From Candidatus Bathyarchaeota archaeon (GTDB taxonomy: Archaea; Thermoproteota; Bathyarchaeia; TCS64; B23): DNA of 36,956 nucleotides. Under the pieces are notes generated by a model. The model ran no database searches, was not told where the DNA came from, and saw nothing but the letters and a program-made list of their open reading frames with translations. Within the stretch, counting starts at the first letter, position 1; the number at the start of each line of letters is the position of its first letter. The stretch spans positions 1-36,956 of the forward strand of contig JAGHBJ010000074.1 in assembly GCA_021161045.1 (NCBI GenBank). The letters are read 5' to 3'. Shown piece by piece: positions 1,681 to 34,269 of the stretch. Both the position numbers and the translations under genes were made by a program.

Positions 1681-2436
1681 TTAGAAGATGATGGAGAGGC
1701 AGGTTAGGGCGCCTTCGCATTTCGTGAATTCGCTGACGTCTAGGGTGATGACATCGAATCCGGCTTCCCTCACCATCTCAACGGCTCTGGGATACCCCTC
1801 AGGCATGAGGACGACGTCGCCTATGGAGAGCGTGTTGGCGGCATACCACTCCTCATCTGGGACTATGAGCTTCTCAAAGGGTTTGAGGACGGGGTGATCG
1901 GCGTATTTCCTCGTCGTGATCATGATTCCTCTGCCGAGGTAGGTGATGTAGCTCTTCAAGTGGACGATGCTTGGATCCTCTATGGTCTCCACGGGGACGT
2001 TCAGCCACTCCCTCATCTGGGCTACTCCCTCAGCGTTAGTCCTCTCCGTCAACCCCGAGATCAACCTATCCGGTAGATGTATGACATCGCCTCCCTCTAT
2101 GGTGGCCGGCGGCTCAGCCCGTTTCACAGGCATATACTGCCTCAGAACCTCCTCCACAGCCGTCTCCTCCCCCCTCCTGCTGGGCTTAGCCATCCTGCAG
2201 ATGAGGGCTCGGCCGCCGTGGACGACGGCGTTATCCTCAACGAAGCAGGAGTCCGGATGCTCATCGTCCCTCGGCAGCCTGATGATCTCTAAGCCCAACT
2301 CCTCCAATACCCTACAATACTTGGCATGCTGCTTCCTCGCCCTCTCCACGTTGATGGTATGCCTCAATGGATGCGATGATATGCATCTTGGATAGGTGGC
2401 TCCAGGCTCCCTAACCAGCGCCCTCTTGGGAGTCAT
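1681..2436 (-). CDS. N(G),N(G)-dimethylarginine dimethylaminohydrolase-like protein (amidinotransferase superfamily)
   Basis: PDSCFVEDNAV, SRRGE, IEGGDV, HLKS and C-terminal GALTCLS catalytic Cys; 251 aa is typical of DDAH. Confidence 0.88.
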   Translation of the reverse strand: MTPKRALVREPGATYPRCISSHPLRHTINVERARKQHAKYCRVLEELGLEIIRLPRDDEHPDSCFVEDNAVVHGGRALICRMAKPSRRGEETAVEEVLRQYMPVKRAEPPATIEGGDVIHLPDRLISGLTERTNAEGVAQMREWLNVPVETIEDPSIVHLKSYITYLGRGIMITTRKYADHPVLKPFEKLIVPDEEWYAANTLSIGDVVLMPEGYPRAVEMVREAGFDVITLDVSEFTKCEGALTCLSIIF

Positions 2437-2490: not shown

Positions 2491-3429
2491 ATGGGAGCTG
2501 AGATGGAGTTCGGCGCACAATCAGAGTATGGAAGGTTGAGGAAGGTCTTGATGCATAAGCCCTCGGAGCATCTGAGGAGGGTGACACCTCAGACGAAGGA
2601 TCACTACCTCTTCAGAGACATCGTCTATTGGAGGGAGTTCGTCAGGGAGCATGAAGCCTTCGTAGAGGCCCTCAGAGGCGAGGGGGTGGAGGTCTATCTG
2701 CTGGGGGAACTACTCGAAGAGGAGGATAGACGCATAGCGGAGCTGATGCCAGACCTCGTCTACACGAGGGACATCTGCAGCGTCACAAATCTCGGAGCCA
2801 TAAGGATGAGGATGCGACATCAGGCCAGATACGCTGAACCCCTCCTGGCCGAGAGGGCGATGAAGAGGCTGGGCATACCCATCGCGCTGAGAGTTAGGCA
2901 TCCAGCCTACCTGGAGGGTGGAGACCTCGTCTACCTCGACCCCGAGACACTGCTCATCGGCTTCGGCCCGAGGTCAGATGAGGGAGGAGTCGAGGCGGTG
3001 AGGGAATTGCTGCTTGGCAAAGCCGTAAAGGAGCTGGTGGCCGTCACCCTACCAAGCTTCAGGGTTCACCTCGATGGAGCCTTGATGATCCTCAGCCGAG
3101 ACCTAGCGGTAATCCATAAACCCTCCCTGGAGCTATACCCAGCCTGGATCTACAGGGGGGACGGGGAAGTGGAGCTGGCCTTCATCGAGGACTACCTTAA
3201 GGAGAGGGGCCTCGACATCATCTACGTCGACGATTGGGAAGTTCGAAACTTCGGCACCAACATCCTCGGCATAGGCGACGGGAAATACGTCACCTACGAG
3301 TGGAATGAGCGGGTTAAGAAGCTGCTAGAGGAGAGAGGGTTCGACGTCATCGGCATCCCAGGATGCCAGCTCAGCCTCGGCGGAGGCGGCCCTCACTGCA
3401 TGACCTGCCCCATACTCCGAGTGCCTTAA
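2491..3429 (+). CDS. arginine deiminase-family protein (short form, amidinotransferase superfamily)
   Basis: SEYGRLRKVLMHKP N-terminus, YTRD, LEGGD, HLD and GGGGPHCMTCP; 312 aa, shorter than canonical ~410-aa ArcA. Confidence 0.85.
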   Translation: MGAEMEFGAQSEYGRLRKVLMHKPSEHLRRVTPQTKDHYLFRDIVYWREFVREHEAFVEALRGEGVEVYLLGELLEEEDRRIAELMPDLVYTRDICSVTNLGAIRMRMRHQARYAEPLLAERAMKRLGIPIALRVRHPAYLEGGDLVYLDPETLLIGFGPRSDEGGVEAVRELLLGKAVKELVAVTLPSFRVHLDGALMILSRDLAVIHKPSLELYPAWIYRGDGEVELAFIEDYLKERGLDIIYVDDWEVRNFGTNILGIGDGKYVTYEWNERVKKLLEERGFDVIGIPGCQLSLGGGGPHCMTCPILRVP

Positions 3430-3443
3430 TGTCCTAAATATAA

Positions 3444-3476
3444 CAAAATTTATCTCTCTTTGCACCAATTAGTGCA
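3444..3476 (+). promoter_or_regulatory. BRE/TATA-like element plus palindromic candidate operator upstream of the ArcE-like gene
   Basis: CAAAATTTATC followed by TGCACCAATTAGTGCA (3461-3476, 14/16 self-complementary) ending on the A of the ATG. Confidence 0.45.
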
Positions 3477-4807
3477 TGATGGCTCGGAGAGTCGTCATCC
3501 TAGGAGCGGCCGGTAGGGATTTCCATAACTTCAACGTATACTTCAGGGACAACCCCCAATACGAGGTTGTGGCCTTCACGGCGGCTCAGCTTCCAAACAT
3601 CGCCGGTCGAATCTATCCGCCGGAGCTGGCTGGTGAGCGATACCCTGATGGGATACCGATACTCCCCGAGGAGGAGCTCCCAAGGCTGATAGGGGAGGAG
3701 AGTGTCGAGCTGGCGGTTCTCTCCTACAGCGACCTCCTCTACGAAGATGTGATGAAAAAGGCCTCAGAGATTCTGGCGCTGGGAGCCGACTTCATGCTCC
3801 TAGGCCCAGGTTCGACGATGCTGAAGTCTAAGCGTCCGGTGATCTCCATCTGCGCCGTCAGAACCGGAGCGGGGAAGAGCACCGTCACCAGGAGGGTTCT
3901 GCGCATACTGCTGTCAAAGGGCCTAAAGCCCGTCGCCATCAGACATCCCATGCCCTATGGAGACTTGGCCAAGCAGGCTGTTCAACGATTCGGAGATTTC
4001 GAGGATCTCGACCGCTATGAGTGCACCATCGAGGAGAGAGAGGAGTATGAACCCATCATAAGGCTGGGAGTCCCCCTCTACGCAGGCGTCGACTATGAGG
4101 GCATCATCAAAAAGGCTGAGGAGGAGGGAGACCTAATCGTCTGGGATGGAGGAAACAACGATCTACCCTTCTACAGGCCGGATCTCCACATCGTCGTGGC
4201 AGACCCCCTGAGGCCTGGACATGAATTGAAGTCCTATCCAGGGACGGCGAATGCGATGATGGCCGACGTCTTCATAGTGAACAAGGTGAACGTCGCAGAC
4301 AGGGAGTCGATTGAAACCGTCAAGGAGAATCTGAGAAAGCTGAATCCGGAGGCACCCATCATCGAGGCAGAATCCATCATCTCGGTTGATAGACCTGAAC
4401 TAATAGAGGGTAAACGCGTCCTCGTCGTCGAGGATGGGCCTACGGTCACCCATGGAGGCCTCGGCTACGCAGCTGGATACGTCGCGGCGAGGGAGTTTGG
4501 GGCCGCTGAGATCGTCGACCCCCGACCCCACGCCGTCGGCTCCCTGAAGGCCGTCTATGAGGAGTATCCCCAGCTTAGGGAGGTATTACCCTCCATGGGC
4601 TATGGCCGTGAGCAGATGAGGGAGCTTGAGGCCTCAATCAACGCCGTTGACTGCGACGCCGTCGTCCTCGGAACTCCCAGCCACCTGGAGAGATTCCTGA
4701 AGCTGAACAAACCCGTCGTCCACGTCTCCTTCGAGCTGAGGGAGACAACAAAGCCGGATCTCGAGGAGATCGTCAGCCGCTTCCTCTCTGAGAGGGGCTT
4801 AATCTAA
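3476..4807 (+). CDS. arcE: arginine synthetase (ArcE)-type P-loop enzyme; COG2403, often annotated as cyclic 2,3-diphosphoglycerate synthetase or GTPase
   Basis: N-terminal GAAGRDFHNFN, AVRTGAGKS P-loop, RHPMPYGDL, EEREEYE, WDGGNND, EDGPT and PSMGY; lacks the DGEHYP start of true CpgS. Confidence 0.75.
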   Translation: MMARRVVILGAAGRDFHNFNVYFRDNPQYEVVAFTAAQLPNIAGRIYPPELAGERYPDGIPILPEEELPRLIGEESVELAVLSYSDLLYEDVMKKASEILALGADFMLLGPGSTMLKSKRPVISICAVRTGAGKSTVTRRVLRILLSKGLKPVAIRHPMPYGDLAKQAVQRFGDFEDLDRYECTIEEREEYEPIIRLGVPLYAGVDYEGIIKKAEEEGDLIVWDGGNNDLPFYRPDLHIVVADPLRPGHELKSYPGTANAMMADVFIVNKVNVADRESIETVKENLRKLNPEAPIIEAESIISVDRPELIEGKRVLVVEDGPTVTHGGLGYAAGYVAAREFGAAEIVDPRPHAVGSLKAVYEEYPQLREVLPSMGYGREQMRELEASINAVDCDAVVLGTPSHLERFLKLNKPVVHVSFELRETTKPDLEEIVSRFLSERGLI

Positions 4808-6718: not shown

Positions 6719-7228
6719 ATGAGGGGAAGGAGACTCGCCCCCATCATCGCCGCCATAGTGATCGCGGTGGCAGCCCTCTACATCCTCGCCAGGCCTAGGG
6801 CTGAACATGTAGAGGAGGGGGTCTACATCGGCATGAAGGCTCCAGACTTCACCGTCGTCGGCGTAGATGGCTCCACCTTCACGCTCTCGAAGCATAGAGG
6901 CGAGATCGTCGTCATCGAATTCTCCACGATGTGGTGTCCCTACTGCGCGAAGCAGATAGAGGTTTTCAGAAGGCTGTCGGAGGAGTTCAAGGAGGGGGTC
7001 TACATCGCCTCCATAGACGTCGACCCCTCAGAGGAGCCTAGTGGGGATTGGGTTAGGAATATGGGTATAAGCTGGTTTTATGGACACTCACCCGAGGCCG
7101 GTCTCCTCTATAAGGTCTCCTATGTCCCTATGGTCATCGTCGTCGATGAGAGGGGCATCATTAGATATCGAGGCGCCTACACCCCCTATGAGAAGTTGAA
7201 GCTCATCATCCTCCAGCTGAGTGAGTGA
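6719..7228 (+). CDS. membrane-anchored TlpA/ResA-type thiol-disulfide oxidoreductase
   Basis: Start MRGRRLAPII (6719) with an N-terminal hydrophobic anchor, APDF, WCPYC and cis-Pro VP motif. Confidence 0.85.
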   Translation: MRGRRLAPIIAAIVIAVAALYILARPRAEHVEEGVYIGMKAPDFTVVGVDGSTFTLSKHRGEIVVIEFSTMWCPYCAKQIEVFRRLSEEFKEGVYIASIDVDPSEEPSGDWVRNMGISWFYGHSPEAGLLYKVSYVPMVIVVDERGIIRYRGAYTPYEKLKLIILQLSE

Positions 7229-7892
7229 GATGGAGGCGGCTAGGCTTCTATTGGCCTTCACAGCTGGCGTTCTATCTCCCCTCTCACCCTGCTCCCTGCC
7301 GCTGCTCCCCTCCTACATCGCGTATTATCTCACAGCCGTCGACGCCCATCGGCTTCGAGGTGGACTCACCCTGGCGTTTACAACCCTCCTAGGCTTCCTA
7401 TCCGTCTACACCCTAATTGGATTCGTCCCATCACTCGCCCTTGGATTCATCCCCCTCAGCGAGAGGGTTTTGAACCCTATCTTCGGCGTTATACTAATCC
7501 TATTAGGCCTCATCACCTATCGGAGAGGCGGTCTCACCCTGTCGGGTATGCCGCATCCAGCTCCACCTGAAGCCGGGGGCCTATTATCCTTCTATCTCTT
7601 CGGCGCAATCTATGCGGTGTCCTCCCTCGGCTGCTCCCTCCCCGTCTTCCTCCTACTAGTCTTCACCTCCGCGGGGGCAGACCTCAACGCCGTGGCGCCC
7701 CTCTACGTCTCCTATGCCCTCGGTTGCGCAGCCCTATTCATACCCCTCTCCCTAGCCGTCGCCTACTCCAAAAGCTATCTAATAGAGAGGATTAGGGGTA
7801 TGGGGGGAATCATCTCCAAAGCTACGGCTTACATATTGATGGCCGCTGGAGTATACATGGCTCTCTCACCCCTCCTCTATGGGAGTGTATAG
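7221..7892 (+). CDS. ccdA: CcdA / DsbD-beta transmembrane disulfide interchange protein
   Basis: About 6 TM segments with SPCSLPLLPSY and SLGCSLP Cys motifs; overlaps the upstream TlpA gene. Confidence 0.88.
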   Translation: MSEMEAARLLLAFTAGVLSPLSPCSLPLLPSYIAYYLTAVDAHRLRGGLTLAFTTLLGFLSVYTLIGFVPSLALGFIPLSERVLNPIFGVILILLGLITYRRGGLTLSGMPHPAPPEAGGLLSFYLFGAIYAVSSLGCSLPVFLLLVFTSAGADLNAVAPLYVSYALGCAALFIPLSLAVAYSKSYLIERIRGMGGIISKATAYILMAAGVYMALSPLLYGSV

Positions 7893-8505
7893 AATCGAAG
7901 GCGTCGAGATCATGGATGTAGTCGGGAGAGCCGAGTTTGAAAGATTTCTATGGAGATGTATCTCACCTATGCCCTATAGACGATATAGGAGGCGGGGTGA
8001 ATACCTAGAGAGGGCTATTCCAAGTGAGAAAGGAGATTCTATTCCTCCACGGCGATGCCGTAGGCCAGATCGAGTATGCGCCGCCGGAGGCCTCGGGCTA
8101 CCCGATAAGTGGAGAGGGATCTGGGTGATGAACTGTATCTGGGTTCTGAGGAGAGCTGGAGGTAGAGGCCTGGGGAGGATGCTCATGAATAGAATGCTGA
8201 GGAATATCGGGGAGGCTGCTGGCGTAGCCACCATCGCCCTAGAGGGGCATCACAGCCCCTGGCTTAAGCTGAGGCAGATGGAGTATCTCGGCTTCAAATC
8301 CATAGACCATAGGAGGCTTAGGCATAGGGTTAAGCGGAGAGACGTCTGCTTAACCCTCCACCTGATGTGGATGCCCCTGAGACCTGGGGCCAAGCCTCCG
8401 GAGATGGATTGGGCTGAGATGCTTAGGAGAGTCGACTTCTGCCTCGCCCATCCGCTATATAGGGCTGAGAGCTGGAGTCTCGACGTCGTCTATGAGCCAT
8501 GCTGA
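7879..8505 (+). CDS. GNAT-family acetyltransferase (YoaP-like) with an internally frameshifted segment; possible pseudogene
   Basis: NCIWV..R.GGRGLGRMLM acetyl-CoA motif is in frame, while 8024-8120 reads RKEILFLHGDAVGQIEYAPPEASGYPISGEG only in the +1 frame. Confidence 0.7.
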   Translation: MGVYRIEGVEIMDVVGRAEFERFLWRCISPMPYRRYRRRGEYLERAIPSEKGDSIPPRRCRRPDRVCAAGGLGLPDKWRGIWVMNCIWVLRRAGGRGLGRMLMNRMLRNIGEAAGVATIALEGHHSPWLKLRQMEYLGFKSIDHRRLRHRVKRRDVCLTLHLMWMPLRPGAKPPEMDWAEMLRRVDFCLAHPLYRAESWSLDVVYEPC

Positions 8506-20260: not shown

Positions 20261-20275
20261 CGAAAACTTATAAAT
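20261..20275 (+). promoter_or_regulatory. canonical BRE + TATA box of the HMGS operon
   Basis: CGAAAAC-TTATAAAT about 40 nt upstream of the start. Confidence 0.7.
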
Positions 20276-20311
20276 AGTACATGAATATGAATCCATCAAT
20301 CATCGCCACTG

Positions 20312-21361
20312 GTGATGGTTTTGAAAACAAGCCGCCCCGTCGGCATAATAGGTTATGGGGCCTATATCCCCATGAATAGGCTCAAGGCTTCCGAGATCAG
20401 CAGGGTCTGGGGTGGATGCGCTGAGCCGATAGAGGAGAAGGCCGTAGCCTCCATCGATGAGGACGCCGTAACCATCGCGGTGGAATGCGCCCGATACGCC
20501 ATAAAACGGGCTAAGATAGATCCAAGGGAGATCGGAGCCATCTATGTCGGAACCGAGTCCAAGCCCTACGCCGTAAAGCCCTGCGGAACCATCGTCGCCG
20601 AGGCGATAGGGGCGACGCCCCACGTGACGGCCGCCGACTATGAGTTCGCCTGTAAAGCCGGAACAGAGGCCTTCCAGGCCTGTATAGGATTGGTGTCCAG
20701 CGGCATGGTGAAGTATGCCATGGCTATAGGGGCCGACACGGCTCAGGGGCGGCCCGCAGACCCCTTAGAGTATACCGTGGCCTGTGGTGGAGCCGCCCTC
20801 ATCTTCACCCTCAAATCCGAGAGGACTCTCGCCTATCTTGAAGGCTCCTACTCCTACGTCACCGACACCCCAGACTTCTGGAGGAGGGGCCTTGAGATGT
20901 ATCCGCGGCATGGGAACAGGTTCACGGGTGAGCCAGCATATTTCAGGCATATCATCGGGGCCGCAAAGGGCTTGATGGCTGAGCTGGGCTATGGCCCCGA
21001 GGATTTCAAGTATGCCGTCTTTCACCAGCCGAATGTTAAGTTCCCAGTTAAGGTGGCTAAGAGGCTTGGCTTCAGCATGGATGCCATAAAGCCTGGTCTC
21101 ATCGTCCCCTACGTCGGCAACACCTACGCCGGCTCCACGCCCATCGGCTTGGCTGCCACCCTCGATGTAGCTGAGCCGGGAGATAGAATTCTCGTCGTTT
21201 CCTACGGCTCTGGGGCTGGGAGTGACGCCTTCAGCTTCGTCGTCCAGGACGCCATAATGGAGGGCAGACCAAGAGACCTACCCGTCTCAGCCTTCATAGC
21301 TAGGAAGAGATACATAGACTACAGCCTATACTCCAGGATGAGGGGAAAGATCCACCTATGA
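20312..21361 (+). CDS. mvaS: archaeal hydroxymethylglutaryl-CoA synthase
   Basis: [23 protein letters not shown] (catalytic Cys), FHQPN, GNTY and SYGSGAGSD motifs. Confidence 0.95.
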
Positions 21362-22491
21362 GACCCGTATACATCGCCGGGGTGGCCCTCACCCCCATAG
21401 GGGAACACTGGGAGCTATCGCTGAGAGACCTCGCCTGCGAGGCAGCCCTAAAGGCCTTGGAGAAGGCTGAGGTGGAGCGCATAGATGCGTTATACGTCGC
21501 GAATATGGGGGCCGCGCCGCTTCAGAGTCAATTACACCTGGGAGCCTTGATGGCTGACGCCCTCGGGCTATATGGCCTCCCAGCCATGAGGGTTGAGGCA
21601 GCCCAGGCCAGCGGCGGAGTCGCCGTTCATGAAGCCAACCTCGCCGTCGCTTCAGGCCTCTACGATAGCGTCCTCGTTGTAGGCGTTGAGAAGATGAGTG
21701 ACGCCCTGCCACTTGAGGTTCGCTCAGCCCTGGCGATGGCCGAGGATCAGGAGTACACAGCCTACACCGGTGTCACAGATGTAGGCCTATGCGCCCTACT
21801 CCATAGGCTCTACATGGAGCGCTATGAGGCTAAGCCCGAGGAGGTCGCAGCCCTCGCAGCCATAAGCCATGAACACGCCGTGGGCTGCCCCCATGCTCAG
21901 TATCCCTTCAGGGTCAGCGTCGAGAAGATCCTCTCCTCCCCGATGGAGGCAGACCCGATACATATGCTTGAATGCTCCGGCATAGGCGACGGAGCGGCGG
22001 CCCTCGTCCTAACCGCAGATCGCGGCGATGTGGAGATAGCAGCCTCAACAGTCGCCGTGGATCACTTCTTCCTAACCGAGAGAAGCGACCCCCTAATCCT
22101 CGAAGCTGTGAGAACCGCGTCCAAGAGAGCTTATGAGAGGGCTGGCATCTCCCCACGGGACATAGACCTGGTGGAGCTCCACGACTCGACGACGATCATA
22201 GGTATCCTCAGCCTAGAGGACTTAGGCTTCGTCGAGAAGGGATTTGGAGCTCGCTATGTATCGGAGGGAAATGTCCGGAGAGATGGGGAACTTCCTGTCA
22301 ACACCTTTGGCGGATTAAAGGCTAGGGGCAACCCCGTGGGGGCGACGGGCGTATATCAGGTTGCGGAGATAGCACTCCAGCTCCTAGGGGAAGCGGGTCG
22401 ATGCCAGGTGGAGGATGCGGAGGTGGGTGTAGCCGAGAACCTCGGCGGAGTCGCCTCCACCGCCTCGATTACAATTCTACGGAGGCATTAG
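21358..22491 (+). CDS. thiolase-family protein (archaeal SCP2-type) with a degenerate active site
   Basis: [33 protein letters not shown] and NLGG fold motifs, but EAAQAS and GNP replace EAACAS and GHP. Confidence 0.9.
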
Positions 22492-22492
22492 G

Positions 22493-22894
22493 ATGAGTGT
22501 CCCAAGGTATTGGAGGGAGATCAAATATCGCTATAGGCTGATAGGAGAGCTTTGCACCGAATGTGGCGCAATAATCTTCCCCAGGAGACGACTCTGTCCA
22601 CACTGCGGCTGTAGGGAGTTGGAGGAGTGTAAACTAAGCGAGACTGGGACGGTGCTATCCTGGACCGTTATACAGCATCCCCCTAAGGGGTATGAGAAGT
22701 ATGCCCCCTACGTCGTCGCTCTCATAAAGCTGGATGACGGCGCTCAGATCCTCTCTCAGGTCGTCGATGTGGAGCCTGAGGAGATGAGGGTTGGCCTCCG
22801 AGTTGAGGCCACCTTCAGGAGGGTTAGGGAGGACGGCTCCTCTGGCATCATCGAATACGGATATAAATTTAGGCCGATCATAGAGGAGCCTTAG
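22493..22894 (+). CDS. DUF35 Zn-ribbon / OB-fold scaffold protein
   Basis: WRE...RYRL.G, CTECG..FP.R..CPHC and I.YGYKF motifs; follows HMGS and the thiolase. Confidence 0.93.
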   Translation: MSVPRYWREIKYRYRLIGELCTECGAIIFPRRRLCPHCGCRELEECKLSETGTVLSWTVIQHPPKGYEKYAPYVVALIKLDDGAQILSQVVDVEPEEMRVGLRVEATFRRVREDGSSGIIEYGYKFRPIIEEP

Positions 22895-24744: not shown

Positions 24745-25230
24745 ATGGGTAGAAAGGGTCGGGAAATAGTGAAGGTTGATGTGGGGGAGCTGATAGAGCT
24801 TCTGAAGAAGGCCTACGCGGATGAGTGGATCGCCTACTATGCCTATAAGTGGATCGCGAAGATGGTTCATGGCCCTGGTTCCCCCCATATCGCCGAGTTA
24901 GCTGAGAAGATCGCGGAGGAAGAGGAGGAGCATGCTAACGAGCTTGCTGAGAGGATCCTAGAGCTTGGTGGAGATCTCCCCTATGGAATCGAGAAGCTCT
25001 ATGAGATCGCGAACTGTAAGACGGTGAAATACCCTGAAGATCTAAACGACCTTAAGGGGATATTAGAGGCCCTCGCGGAGGCCGAGGCCTGCGCCATCGA
25101 GGTATATAACAAGATATTGAATTGGTTAAGCCCCTGCTACGAGAAGGACGTCAAGACCTTCCATCTCATCGAGCACATCCTCTCCGAGGAGATAGCCCAC
25201 GAGGAGTCCTTCGAGAATCTAATAGAATAA
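24745..25230 (+). CDS. dpsL: DPS-like (DpsL) ferritin-superfamily protein
   Basis: LL..AYADEW..YY.Y, EE.EHA, RI.ELGG, AE.CAI and EEI.HE; Cys pair (IANC, EACA) consistent with the thioferritin motif. Confidence 0.85.
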   Translation: MGRKGREIVKVDVGELIELLKKAYADEWIAYYAYKWIAKMVHGPGSPHIAELAEKIAEEEEEHANELAERILELGGDLPYGIEKLYEIANCKTVKYPEDLNDLKGILEALAEAEACAIEVYNKILNWLSPCYEKDVKTFHLIEHILSEEIAHEESFENLIE

Positions 25231-25244
25231 ACAACCAGCAACTC

Positions 25245-25264
25245 TCTTTTTATTCTTTAAAAAA
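25245..25264. terminator. bidirectional T-rich terminator region between convergent dpsL and dfx
   Basis: TCTTTTTATTCTTT on + immediately followed by AAAAAA (T-tract on -). Confidence 0.45.
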
Positions 25265-25276
25265 GGAGATGTTATT

Positions 25277-25654
25277 TCACCTACTCATCCATAGACCGTG
25301 TAGATTACAGTAATCCCTAGCCTTCAAGATCTCCTCATCGGTCTTGAAGACTGCCTCGGGCTTATCACCAGGCTTGAGGAATCTCACCATCACACCCTTC
25401 TCGGTCTCAACCTCTATCCACTCTATGTAGTGATCCTCCTCCATGGGATGTGGGATGGAGCCGATCTTAACCCTCACCTCTCCCCCAACCCTCTCAACGA
25501 CGGGTAGATGCTTCTCATAGCCACTCTCCTCTCCCTTCTCCTCCATCAGCCTCATAGGCTGACCACAGCAGACGAGCTGTCCAACGCCGCTATGCATCAC
25601 CAGAACGATGTTGCCGCAGATATCGCATTTATAGATCTGTAGCTTCTCAGTCAT
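25277..25654 (-). CDS. dfx: desulfoferrodoxin (class I superoxide reductase)
   Basis: YKC..CGNIV...LVCCG centre I; EKHLP, HPM...HYIEWI and CNLHG centre II. Confidence 0.96.
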   Translation of the reverse strand: MTEKLQIYKCDICGNIVLVMHSGVGQLVCCGQPMRLMEEKGEESGYEKHLPVVERVGGEVRVKIGSIPHPMEEDHYIEWIEVETEKGVMVRFLKPGDKPEAVFKTDEEILKARDYCNLHGLWMSR

Positions 25655-25656
25655 TT

Positions 25657-26847
25657 CTACTCCTCCTTTATTCCAATCTCCTGATGCTTATTTAAGATCT
25701 CTTCAGCTAATCGATCTATTCTCTCGAGATCTCTTTCCCTAGCCTTTCCCTTGATTTCTATCGAATCTATGATCTCCGCTTGGAGGCCTGATAATGTCTC
25801 CCTCAACATCTTCAGTGTTCTCCCGCCCCAGGCGTAGGAGGTTATGAGGACGATGTATCTCAGCTTAGGTCTGAGGGCGTTGATGATGTGAGCCGCGTAT
25901 AGTATGCTTGGATGGGGGCCTCCAAGCACCGTTGGAGATGCGACCACGAGGGTTGCGGCGTCGACGAGGGCGATTGCCAACTCGCCAATGTCCGTCACCG
26001 TGAGGTTGAAGGGCTTCACCCCTATGCCCCGCTCCATCAAGGCGTCGACAAGTCGGGCAATCATCTCCCCCGTGCTTCCATGCATGGAGACGTATACGAT
26101 GACGACCTCGTTCTCCACCTCATCTGAGATCCAGTGCTCATAGGCCTTGAGTATGAAGGAGGGGTCTCTATAGATCGGGCCGTGGCTCGGAGCTATGACG
26201 TCTACCTCCAGCTCCCTGATCCTCTCCAAGTGTCTGCGTATGACGGCTCTGAAGGGCATCATGATCTCGGCGTAATATCTCTTCGCAGCCTCATAGACCT
26301 CCCCCTCGTCTCTGACTGAGAGATCGCTGGTGGCGAGGTGGGAGCCAAAGAGGTCGCAGGTGAAGAGGATTCGCTGCTCCCTCAGATAAGTCAACATGGT
26401 CTCAGGCCAGTGAACCCAGGGGGCGTGAATGAACTCCAGGGTTTTATCCCCCAGCGATAGCTGCTCCCCATCTTCAACCGTCTTGATCCTCTCCTCGGGG
26501 AGGTGGAGGAGATCCATGAGGAGCTCCCTACACCTCGGCGTTGCGACAACCGATGCCTCGGGATAGGCTTCCAGGATCTCGGGTATACCACCCGAGTGAT
26601 CCTGCTCAGCGTGATTTGCGACGACGTAGTCTATCCGTTCTATGTTCAGATCCCGAAGGGAATCGAGGAGTCTCTCAACCTTAGAGGGATCTACGGTGTC
26701 TATTAACGCCACCCGCCTGTCTCCCTGAATTAAATACGCGTTATAGCTTGTCCCATCGGGGAGGGGTATCAACTCGTCGAAGAGTCGTCTATCCCAGTCT
26801 AGAGCTCCAACCCAGTAGACTCCCTTAGCCACTTTCCGCGGAGCCAT
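25657..26847 (-). CDS. fprA: flavodiiron protein FprA (O2/NO reductase)
   Basis: GTSYNAYLI, NHAEQDHSG, HWPE, CDLFG, PSHG and flavodoxin-domain YVSMHGST motifs. Confidence 0.95.
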   Translation of the reverse strand: MAPRKVAKGVYWVGALDWDRRLFDELIPLPDGTSYNAYLIQGDRRVALIDTVDPSKVERLLDSLRDLNIERIDYVVANHAEQDHSGGIPEILEAYPEASVVATPRCRELLMDLLHLPEERIKTVEDGEQLSLGDKTLEFIHAPWVHWPETMLTYLREQRILFTCDLFGSHLATSDLSVRDEGEVYEAAKRYYAEIMMPFRAVIRRHLERIRELEVDVIAPSHGPIYRDPSFILKAYEHWISDEVENEVVIVYVSMHGSTGEMIARLVDALMERGIGVKPFNLTVTDIGELAIALVDAATLVVASPTVLGGPHPSILYAAHIINALRPKLRYIVLITSYAWGGRTLKMLRETLSGLQAEIIDSIEIKGKARERDLERIDRLAEEILNKHQEIGIKEE

Positions 26848-26849
26848 CC

Positions 26850-27011
26850 TTAATTCCCCAGCTTCTCGAAGAGATCCTTGCCGACGCCGCAGATGGGGCA
26901 GACCCAGCTCTCAGGCAGCTCCTCGAAGGGGGTTCCAGGCTCAACTCCTGAATCGGGGTCGCCAACCTCTGGGTCGTATATATATCCGCAGATAGAGCAT
27001 CTCCACTTCAT
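26850..27011 (-). CDS. rub: rubredoxin
   Basis: Not in the ORF track. Manual translation: [53 protein letters not shown]; GGTGA SD-like sequence upstream. Confidence 0.97.
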
Positions 27012-27056
27012 ATTCATCACCATATCAATCTTTCATCGTCGATAAAAAGTTAGGGA

Positions 27057-27632
27057 TCAATACTCCTCGCAGAGGATCTCGAAGTAGGTCCAGGAGTGTC
27101 CGCAGGAGGGGCATCTCTCCGGAGGCTCCGTGCCCTCATGGACGTAGCCGCATTTACGACACTTCCATCTCACAGCCTTATCCTTCTTGAAGACAGTTCC
27201 CCTCTCCACGTTCTCTAGGAGCTTTAGGAATCTCTCCTCGTGATGCTTCTCTGCGACGGCTATGGCTCTGAGGGTGGCGGCGATCTTATTGAAGCCCTCT
27301 TCCTCCGCCACCTTGGCGAACTCGGGGTACATCTCGGTATGCTCGTATCGTTCACCCTCAGCGGCGGCTCTCAGGTTCTCGGCGGTGCTTCCGATCTTTC
27401 CTGCTGGATAGGAGGCGGTGATCTCAACGAGGCCTCCTTCAAGGAGTTTGAAGAGGGTTTCCGCATGCTCCCTCTCATTCTCGGCGGTTTCCAGGAAGAT
27501 GGCTGCGATCTGCTCATAGCCCTCCTTCCTCGCCTGGGAGGCGAAGAAGGTGTATCGGTTTCGGGCCTGGGACTCTCCTGCAAAGGCTATCAGGAGATTC
27601 TTCTCGGTTCTGGTTCCCTTTAGGCTCTTCAT
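27057..27632 (-). CDS. rbr: rubrerythrin
   Basis: AFAGESQARNRY, E.EHA, GE.YE...MYP, EKHH and C-terminal WKCRKCGY...CPSC. Confidence 0.96.
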   Translation of the reverse strand: MKSLKGTRTEKNLLIAFAGESQARNRYTFFASQARKEGYEQIAAIFLETAENEREHAETLFKLLEGGLVEITASYPAGKIGSTAENLRAAAEGERYEHTEMYPEFAKVAEEEGFNKIAATLRAIAVAEKHHEERFLKLLENVERGTVFKKDKAVRWKCRKCGYVHEGTEPPERCPSCGHSWTYFEILCEEY

Positions 27633-33900: not shown

Positions 33901-34269
33901 CTATACCTCCATCCCTTTATGCTCCCTCAATCTCTCCCTAAGCCACCTCGCCACCTCCTTTAAAAGTGGGTTAGGCGTAGCGAGAACCGGAACCTCCCTG
34001 GCGCCTACTCTTAGTATGGGTCGGTACTCAGGCATCTCCGCGTAGAGGAGGCTCGCCCAGTAGATGCGGCCCCTCATACGCTCCTTCAGGAGCTCCTTGG
34101 TGTTGAAGGGTAGGGGGACGTGGTGGAAGGCGACTCCCTCCGCCCAGTTGAGGACGACGGGTCTCCCAGCCTCTATGAGGAGGGCGCAGACCTCGGCGAG
34201 CTCCTGTAGGGTGTACTCAACCATCTCTAGGATTATGAGCTCCTTAGCAGGCATGTAGGTGATCTTCAC
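33901..34269 (-). CDS. conserved archaeal hypothetical protein
   Basis: Clean 122-aa ORF with host codon usage, 2 nt downstream of the aminotransferase stop. Confidence 0.75.
   Translation of the reverse strand: MKITYMPAKELIILEMVEYTLQELAEVCALLIEAGRPVVLNWAEGVAFHHVPLPFNTKELLKERMRGRIYWASLLYAEMPEYRPILRVGAREVPVLATPNPLLKEVARWLRERLREHKGMEV

Follow-up and report, generated by a model that had tools for sequence, protein, structure and literature searches.

In archaea, the endergonic thiolase step that leads into mevalonate synthesis is described as being almost universally dealt with by a complex of three proteins, that is, a thiolase (acetyl-coenzyme A (CoA) C-acetyltransferase; ACAT), 3-hydroxy-3-methylglutaryl-CoA (HMG-CoA) synthase (HMGS) and a DUF35 protein (PMC12960953). 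[quoted passage not shown] The same account describes PhlACB and MucABC, which keep and require an HMGS subunit that is itself dead (PMC12960953). Several thiolase/DUF35 pairs with different roles have been documented within single archaeal genomes (10.1101/2024.07.05.601840), and thiolase-fold proteins without the Cys that pair with DUF35 are described as aldolases (Ltp2, which uses Tyr294 of its YDHF motif together with Tyr344, and Sal, which uses Tyr302 and Cys304 of YDCY), a further member, TbSLP, having weak malonyl-CoA decarboxylase activity (PMC12329534). Here we analyse a 36,956-nucleotide stretch of DNA from a Candidatus Bathyarchaeota archaeon (contig JAGHBJ010000074.1; hereafter, at its full length, the window), in which three co-directional open reading frames (ORFs) at 20312-22894 encode HMGS, a thiolase-like protein and a DUF35 protein, coordinates that match exactly those of an earlier note on this DNA. 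The operon thiolase is dead, judging by its residues, yet conserved, which makes it fairly probable that the first step of lipid-precursor synthesis falls to another thiolase encoded elsewhere in the genome.

The thiolase-like gene (21358..22491, + strand, 377 aa) encodes an SCP2/archaeal-type thiolase-fold protein with the Pfam domains Thiolase_N (3.7e-19) and Thiolase_C_1 (1.4e-46). It matches two solved thiolases over its full length, namely that of Pyrococcus furiosus (7yvy, E 1.9e-101) and that of the M. thermolithotrophicus complex (6esq, E 1.2e-75; both HMMER). In these alignments, Gln83 of the motif VEAAQASGG (codon CAG, 21604..21606, + strand) pairs with the nucleophilic Cys of VEAACASGG in both solved proteins, HDST (22180..22191, + strand; H275 and D276 kept, Phe replaced by Thr) pairs with HDAF/HDCF, and Asn325 of GNP (codon AAC, 22330..22332, + strand) pairs with the His of GHP. 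Translation and alignment thus confirm the three replacements that the earlier note had read from the sequence (Gln83 at 21604, HDST at His275 and Asn325 at 22330), and its argument that Gln83 is not a single miscall holds, given that no base of CAG agrees with TGY and that the Q83/HDST/GNP state is identical in the nine closest database proteins (86-98% identity). RNA-library contigs covering 21449-21634 and 22266-22436 likewise show no change at the Q83 and N325 codons, at a depth of about 2. The gene is otherwise intact, and the translational coupling that had been noted is evident from an ATGA overlap of the HMGS stop and the thiolase-like start (21358-21361) and from the TAG-g-ATG junction between the thiolase-like stop and the DUF35 start (22489-22495, with GGAGG upstream).

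The two partners of this protein are unimpaired in sequence. HMGS (20312..21361, + strand, 349 aa; Pfam ACP_syn_III_C / HMG_CoA_synt_C) aligns over its full length with the HMGS chain of 6esq (E 2.9e-127) and retains not only the catalytic Cys and His, as the earlier note had stated, but the whole tetrad E82/C114/H238/N270 (hereafter ECHN); it is the sole HMGS found in this genome. The DUF35 protein (22493..22894, + strand, 133 aa) consists of a zinc ribbon (zf-ChsH2, PF12172) and an OB fold (OB_ChsH2_C, PF01796), and its zinc-ribbon residues C21, C24, C35 and C38 do not vary across 34 orthologues. On these alignments, the thiolase-like protein cannot be a canonical thiolase, and the coupled conversion of acetyl-CoA to acetoacetyl-CoA and on to HMG-CoA would not be possible within the trio, because the Cys, the HDxF Phe and the GHP His are missing. 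A complex prediction for the three proteins scored 0.89, as compared with 0.72 when HMGS was replaced as a control; likeness to 6ESQ could itself lift this score, and we do not use it as evidence.

Loss of the Cys is common to the relatives of this protein. Among the 120 best homologues (57-98% identity), the named sources of which are Bathyarchaeia or Bathyarchaeota, the nucleophile column contains no Cys at all (including the query, Ser in 92, Gln in 12, Ala in 10, Glu in 4 and Thr, Tyr and Asn in one each). Compared with the same two congeners (Nei–Gojobori method), the thiolase-like gene has ratios of non-synonymous to synonymous substitution rates (dN/dS) of 0.091 and 0.105, HMGS of 0.036 and 0.025, and DUF35 of 0.015 and 0.035; the thiolase-like gene is therefore under strong purifying selection that is approximately three-fold weaker than that on HMGS and DUF35. 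The earlier note had proposed an orthologue alignment with dN/dS and had held that Cys in close relatives would point to simple decay; with Cys in 0 of 120 homologues and a dN/dS of around 0.1, the gene, which many families keep in this state, is not decaying, because it is conserved under purifying selection. It had also asked whether the replacements are conserved, and in this respect the loss of the Cys held across the clade, while Gln and Asn themselves vary within it. The constraint on the protein is relaxed but real: among operons of the class, the thiolase proteins have diverged 1.43 times as much as HMGS in Cys-less pairs (n = 204) and 1.04 times as much in Cys-bearing pairs (n = 22), the pairs being non-independent, and 22 positions that are invariant in Cys-bearing operon thiolases are relaxed, as against 66 conserved positions, in the Cys-less clade, in which only three positions (Y46, L246 and S367) are newly conserved.

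To place this operon within its class, we surveyed 81 genomes, including that of the window, in which the 150 best thiolase matches were classified by script and 50 weaker matches were left out. The HMGS–thiolase–DUF35 order occurs with a Cys-less thiolase in 31 of the 81 genomes (Asp at the nucleophile site in 18, Gln in 4, Ser in 4 and Ala in 4; in one more, G036, this region is cut off by the contig end) and with a Cys-bearing thiolase in 13; in G030, the operon thiolase gene is broken by a run of N, and its nucleophile region reads Ala. The order of the three genes is common to all 29 relatives' loci compared. All 27 full-length Cys-less operon thiolases fall into one clade (SH-aLRT 93; IQ-TREE quick mode, PMSF, 56 rows; this branch is not starred), nested with Cys-bearing, HDAF-type operon thiolases in a group with 100% support, for which the minimum is one change of state. 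A single ancient loss of the Cys in the operon clade is thus the most parsimonious, although not a proven, history on this tree.

A second, independent dead lineage comprises 11 of the 14 thiolases that precede a DUF35–HMGS fusion of approximately 507 aa (loci L149, L151, L153-L160 and L138 of genomes G008, G020, G067, G026, G056, G072, G077, G062, G037, G038 and G004). These proteins have a deletion of four residues at the nucleophile, YDQST in place of HDCF and GNP in place of GHP, and the HMGS part of the fusion keeps ECHN; their relatives in G003, G006 and G054 retain the Cys, HDCF and GHP. The Tyr of YDQST stands as in the YD motifs of the aldolases. Taking both types together, 42 of the 81 class genomes have a dead HMGS-linked thiolase.

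A live thiolase is encoded elsewhere in nearly all of these genomes. The genome of the window (97% complete) contains three Thiolase_N genes and no other protein of this fold except HMGS. The search for a second Cys/GHP thiolase suggested in the earlier note was successful: a gene on contig C1, the sole Cys-bearing thiolase found in this genome, has EAACGSSG, HDCF and GHP, is directly followed by its own DUF35 gene, and is flanked by genes for a crotonase/enoyl-CoA hydratase, a 3-hydroxyacyl-CoA dehydrogenase (3HCDH), EtfB and EtfA. The third gene, on contig C49 (G000, L002 1501-2664, 2669-3001 and 3025-4152), also encodes a Cys-less protein, with Ala at the site and both HDAF and GHP kept. 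The C49 gene is preceded by a class-III aminotransferase gene and followed by genes for a short DUF35 protein and a family III CoA-transferase, and its product groups with proteins of G028 and G064 that have Pro at the site (IENGPAAGG), that is, with a different Cys-less family. A search of this genome with PF08541 for an NphT7-type acetoacetyl-CoA synthase, considered as an alternative source of acetoacetyl-CoA, matched HMGS alone, and we rejected that candidate.

Across the class, 31 genomes share the operon type of the window and 30 of them have a Cys-bearing paralogue, and a Cys-bearing thiolase is found elsewhere in 10 of the 11 genomes of the second dead type (in one of them, G020, a classical NEAF/CIGGG thiolase of another subfamily). 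Of the 13 genomes with a Cys-bearing operon thiolase, 10 gave just one thiolase match; as the genomes are related, this contrast in the co-occurrence of dead and live copies is descriptive and not a test.

The state of HMGS follows a consistent pattern. ECHN is present in 40 of 46 class HMGS sequences, including every one linked to a Cys-less thiolase, and the tetrad is lost only beside Cys-bearing thiolases, as in all six exceptions (G016/G073 and the HMGS-like–DUF35 fusions of G004, G005, G017 and G074). There are reciprocal loci in the class (L024/L025 of G073 and G016, and L165/L166), at which the thiolase has kept its Cys and the HMGS of the operon reads SGPN/TGPN in place of the tetrad; these genomes carry a separate HMGS–DUF35 fusion with ECHN. 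HMGS-like–DUF35 fusions of approximately 480-520 aa at L135, L137, L139, L141 and L145 (G004, G074, G017, G005 and G047) each adjoin a distinct Cys-bearing thiolase (VENFCASGM, FGHPI) and resemble bacterial ACAT/HMGS–DUF35 modules with a dead HMGS; those of G004, G074, G017 and G005 lack ECHN (TTNI/TTNL/TMPN), and G047 is excluded from this count.

Dead thiolases beside an intact HMGS are also found outside the class. Among the 150 nearest cluster representatives at 50% identity, the nucleophile column contains Cys in 80, another residue in 68 and a gap in 2. In loci from named genomes, a Cys-less thiolase occurs in 18 of 80, and HMGS is visible directly upstream in 15 of these 18 (five from Bathyarchaeia, three from Candidatus Wolframiiraptor, four from Chloroflexota, and one each from Ca. 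Pelearchaeum, a Thermoplasmatota metagenome-assembled genome (MAG) and a MAG labelled Proteobacteria). At L221, L253, L261, L236, L249, L258, L235, L259, L264 and L272, all from lineages other than Bathyarchaeia, a thiolase with Glu, Asp, Ala or Gly at the site lies between an intact HMGS and DUF35, and in the named-genome set, with the window's own HMGS added, ECHN is kept in all 15 HMGS that adjoin Cys-less thiolases. At one locus of a Desulfurococcales MAG (L209), the HMGS beside a Cys-bearing thiolase reads ETTC, possibly a dead HMGS or an alignment slip. At least six changes of Cys state are required on a FastTree phylogeny of 136 rows, and on this gene-level evidence the thiolase and HMGS reactions appear to have been physically uncoupled repeatedly.

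The earlier note had offered two readings of the thiolase-like protein, that is, a pseudo-enzyme scaffold or a neofunctionalised subunit, either of which would imply a non-standard entry into the mevalonate pathway. The pseudo-enzyme branch fits the data, because the residues of a canonical thiolase are absent, the gene is under purifying selection, a live thiolase is encoded elsewhere and HMGS is intact; neofunctionalisation is disfavoured, all three former catalytic positions being variable. A non-standard entry stands in one sense alone: one operon-encoded complex no longer houses both the thiolase step and the HMGS step. By analogy with the described systems, we think it rather likely that the pseudo-thiolase persists in the HMGS complex as a subunit with a structural, CoA-binding role and that acetoacetyl-CoA is supplied in trans. 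We propose this mirror case because archaeal HMGS needs ACAT, because the CoA site is fused between the two, and because PhlACB and MucABC retain a dead HMGS. The dead subunit would still supply the thiolase half of the shared CoA-binding chamber and may provide the assembly or solubility that archaeal HMGS requires. The C1 thiolase and its DUF35 partner may make acetoacetyl-CoA in trans, or it may come from 3-hydroxybutyryl-CoA that is oxidised in the same butyrate/beta-oxidation-type pathway. Once central metabolism regularly passed through acetoacetyl-CoA, channelling by the thiolase could have become dispensable and then been lost, and might even have been harmful given that thiolysis is the favoured direction; drift may subsequently have brought helix-capping residues, for the helix that follows, to the former nucleophile site.

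Several observations weigh against a purely structural subunit fed in trans. At the former catalytic site, D276 is kept in 141 and H275 in 102 of 147 clade sequences, the window protein included, and Asp/Glu at the nucleophile position arises in several independent lineages, although two changes from TGY are needed; this recurrence could reflect helix capping or else a selected chemical role. Physical assembly of the trio itself, as a dodecamer with a fused CoA-binding site, is something that we infer from operon conservation and homology. The node that unites the Cys-less clade is not resolved in the larger FastTree phylogeny. At 11 fetched loci of the class, an HMGS–DUF35 fusion occurs without an adjoining thiolase, from which it follows that HMGS here may not strictly need a dedicated thiolase subunit, and this weakens the argument for an indispensable scaffold. 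Finally, a Cys-bearing thiolase was sought and not found in G030 (86% complete), and a PF00108 search of G026 (97% complete; L154, L188) matched the dead copy only; if these absences are real, acetoacetyl-CoA must arise in another way in those genomes.

A further-reaching version of the structural proposal, which we regard as possible but doubtful, is that death of the subunit is adaptive and recurrent, having been selected at least six to seven times in anaerobes with abundant free acetoacetyl-CoA from a butyrate/beta-oxidation-type pathway (that is, in Bathyarchaeia (twice), Wolframiiraptor/Pelearchaeum, Thermoplasmatota, Chloroflexota and Njordarchaeota). Because a live thiolase at the CoA chamber of HMGS would cleave acetoacetyl-CoA, the thiolase site would have been killed repeatedly while the CoA-binding half was kept. 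A channelling machine would thereby have become an acetoacetyl-CoA capture subunit for HMGS, in which the pantetheine arm would be guided towards HMGS by whichever polar or acidic residue has taken the place of the nucleophile.

It is unlikely, in our judgement, that the protein has instead become a new enzyme or a sensor, that is, one that carries out retro-aldol cleavage, decarboxylation of malonyl-CoA (in the manner of the ketosynthase (KS) relatives KS-Q and KS-DC, or of TbSLP) or thioester hydrolysis, or one that regulates HMGS by sensing CoA esters. Such a change is conceivable given that Gln at the nucleophile site converts ketosynthases into decarboxylases, that independent lineages have repeatedly acquired an acidic residue or Ser there, and that H275 and D276 are mostly kept. 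There are also precedents in the DUF35-paired aldolases Ltp2 and Sal and in the weak decarboxylase TbSLP, all Cys-less (PMC12329534). Against it, all three former catalytic positions are variable in the clade: across 147 sequences, position 83 is Ser in 96, Asp in 16, Gln in 15, Ala in 13, Glu in 4 and Thr, Tyr and Asn in one each; position 275 is His in 102, Gln in 42, Met in 2 and Tyr in one; and position 325 is Asn in 118, His in 27 and Ser and Asp in one each, so that the GHP His is lost in 120. The Tyr of YDHF/YDCY and the equivalent of Tyr344 are absent (H275 and N325 in their places), there is no MaoC-type hydratase partner among the ORFs of the window, in which DUF35 is free-standing, and the three newly conserved positions are the only ones of their kind. 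We also sought an invariant Cys across the 147 Cys-less sequences and found none, and conserved replacement chemistry at the former catalytic site is not apparent from the alignment.

The AlphaFold2 (AF2) model of the thiolase-like protein (mean predicted local distance difference test (pLDDT) 97.2; predicted template modelling score (pTM) 0.95) has 7yvy and 6esq/6et9 as its top Foldseek matches and superimposes on 6esq_A with a template modelling (TM) score of 0.97 and a root mean square deviation of 1.3 Å; the protein is thus predicted with high confidence to share its five-layer fold with the thiolase in the archaeal complex of known structure. Helix 85-98 of the model begins directly after position 83. 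The preferences of N-cap and N-terminal residues of helices resemble the replacements Ser, Asp, Gly, Asn, Thr, Gln and Glu at this position, and the replacements fit stability-driven selection, that is, helix capping, over catalysis. Two particular activities were considered and put aside. Malonyl-CoA decarboxylation of the KS-Q type, suggested by Q83, was set aside as Gln is not conserved and as searches of the 97%-complete genome gave 0 matches for both acyl-CoA carboxyltransferase (PF01039) and biotin carboxylase (PF02785), owing to which malonyl-CoA is probably not made. A Ser83 acting as a DpsC-like nucleophile is impossible in the window protein, which has Gln, and the site is variable.

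Improbable, too, and more so than a new function, is a heteromeric thiolase in which the dead subunit pairs with a live C1-type thiolase inside the HMGS complex and channelling is preserved, as in the heterodimerising scaffold of the earlier note. The dead operon copy and a live paralogue do co-occur in 30 of 31 genomes, thiolases are obligate dimers, and live/dead pairs such as KS–CLF (the ketosynthase and its chain-length factor) exist in the superfamily. However, the C1-type live paralogue is only 38-41% identical to the pseudo-thiolase, adjoins a DUF35 gene of its own and lies within a crotonase/3HCDH/Etf cluster, and the same type of paralogue forms the sole thiolase–DUF35 pair in many class genomes that lack an HMGS-linked thiolase. 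In G020, moreover, the NEAF/CIGGG subfamily of the live enzyme makes it unlikely to fit the same interface.

That the protein is still a thiolase, by virtue of an unconventional nucleophile or of a Cys brought in from elsewhere in the pocket, seems to us very improbable. The best candidate, C206, stands beside the substrate-binding DGAAA motif and is present in the window protein and in 74% of clade representatives, but it is equally invariant in canonical Cys-bearing relatives and is therefore no replacement nucleophile; no Cys is invariant in the clade, the GHP His has been lost as well, and the single replacement H284A is enough to stop the archaeal complex from forming HMG-CoA (PMC12960953). 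Least credible of all is that the gene is decaying or that the sequence or its assembly is in error, for which the approximately 1.4-fold faster evolution of the thiolase relative to its HMGS partner might be adduced, but which is contradicted by the intact ORF with its start overlapping the HMGS stop, the dN/dS of about 0.1, the same state in 147 sequences from many assemblies, the very high confidence of the AF2 model and the two codons unchanged in independent RNA-library contigs (depth of about 2).

As regards the setting of the operon, a TATA-like box read from the sequence (TTATAAATA; 20268..20276, + strand), 36 nt 5' of the HMGS start, is its putative archaeal promoter. RNA-library contigs from one sample (95-99% identity, low depth) cover parts of all three genes; as DNA may be present in such libraries, they are a weak hint of operon expression and no proof of transcription, transcript ends or level, and gaps in their coverage carry no information. 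The flanking genes (DUF362, a GFO/IDH/MocA oxidoreductase and glycyl-tRNA synthetase) are housekeeping and unrelated. Elsewhere in the window, 24745-27632 holds an oxidative-stress cluster such as strict anaerobes typically have, with genes for a ferritin-like/rubrerythrin protein, desulfoferrodoxin, rubrerythrin and a flavo-diiron protein of the ODP type. Divergent ORFs of the arginine deiminase/DDAH superfamily lie at 1681-2436 (- strand) and 2491-3429 (+ strand), the first matching only the middle of the profile, and ORFs of 443, 223, 208 and 122 aa within 3476-4807, 7221-8505 and 33901-34269 have no Pfam match at E <= 1e-5.

Our literature search for a Cys-less thiolase in an archaeal HMGS operon, which extended to neither subscription journals nor supplements, returned no description of one, and a 2026 paper on repurposed complexes discusses, in the sections consulted, only dead HMGS (PMC12960953). 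A dead complex thiolase with an intact HMGS and a separate thiolase in the same class departs from the near-universal channelling picture, and dead-thiolase loci occur in other archaeal and bacterial lineages as well. By their residues, these genes are wrongly served by the automatic label 'acetyl-CoA C-acetyltransferase', and metabolic reconstructions of Bathyarchaeia will need to route acetoacetyl-CoA from another thiolase or from a 3-hydroxyacyl-CoA pathway. As a natural mirror image of PhlACB and MucABC, the operon offers a clean system in which to ask what structural share each subunit has in the fused CoA site and may be of interest for both archaeal lipid biosynthesis and pseudoenzyme research. 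Should the adaptive version be true, the archaeal channelling complex would be functionally absent from approximately half of a major archaeal class.

Among known systems, one parallel is found in ketosynthases. KS-CLF, KS-Q and the KS-DC of HMGS beta-branching cassettes have Gln or Ser where the Cys would be and act next to a condensing enzyme that is live (in beta-branching, an HMGS homologue); they decarboxylate malonyl-acyl carrier protein and keep their His pair. The window clade differs in that Gln occurs in only 15 of 147 sequences, 120 of the 147 are without the GHP His and no malonyl-CoA route was found in the genome. Ltp2–ChsH2(DUF35), Sal–Shy and TbSLP share with the thiolase-like protein a Cys-less thiolase fold associated with a DUF35 domain, and 6ok1 and 5ab4-7 are structural neighbours of its model; its similarity to them is far lower, however (E 2e-21 as compared with 1e-101 to the P. 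furiosus thiolase), HDST and Asn325 stand where the aldolases have catalytic Tyr motifs, there is no steroid context, and the MaoC-type hydratase that partners Ltp2 and Sal has no counterpart among the window ORFs.

Closer in sequence, the P. furiosus thiolase PFC_04095 (7YVY) is the nearest solved protein and has an HDAF-type motif, as do the Cys-bearing lineages that are sister to the window clade, but, unlike the window protein, has the canonical VEAACASGG, HDAF and GHP. The M. thermolithotrophicus complex (6ESQ/6ET9) corresponds to the operon gene by gene, with the same ECHN tetrad, a thiolase fold matched at TM 0.97 and a DUF35 protein of zinc ribbon and OB fold; it differs in that the window thiolase lacks the Cys, the HDxF Phe and the GHP His. 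In PhlACB (PpATase), MucABC (SmaATase) and the ACAT/HMGS–DUF35 of P. fluorescens, homologous HMGS/ACAT/DUF35 modules likewise retain one dead subunit, on which the other thiolase-fold subunit depends (PMC12960953), and the structures of PhlC and MucB match the model of the thiolase-like protein (Foldseek). In the published descriptions of PhlACB and MucABC, it is HMGS that lacks E-C-H-N and ACAT that keeps its Cys (PMC12960953), so that the window operon, which belongs to primary metabolism and not to a secondary-metabolite cluster, presents their mirror image.

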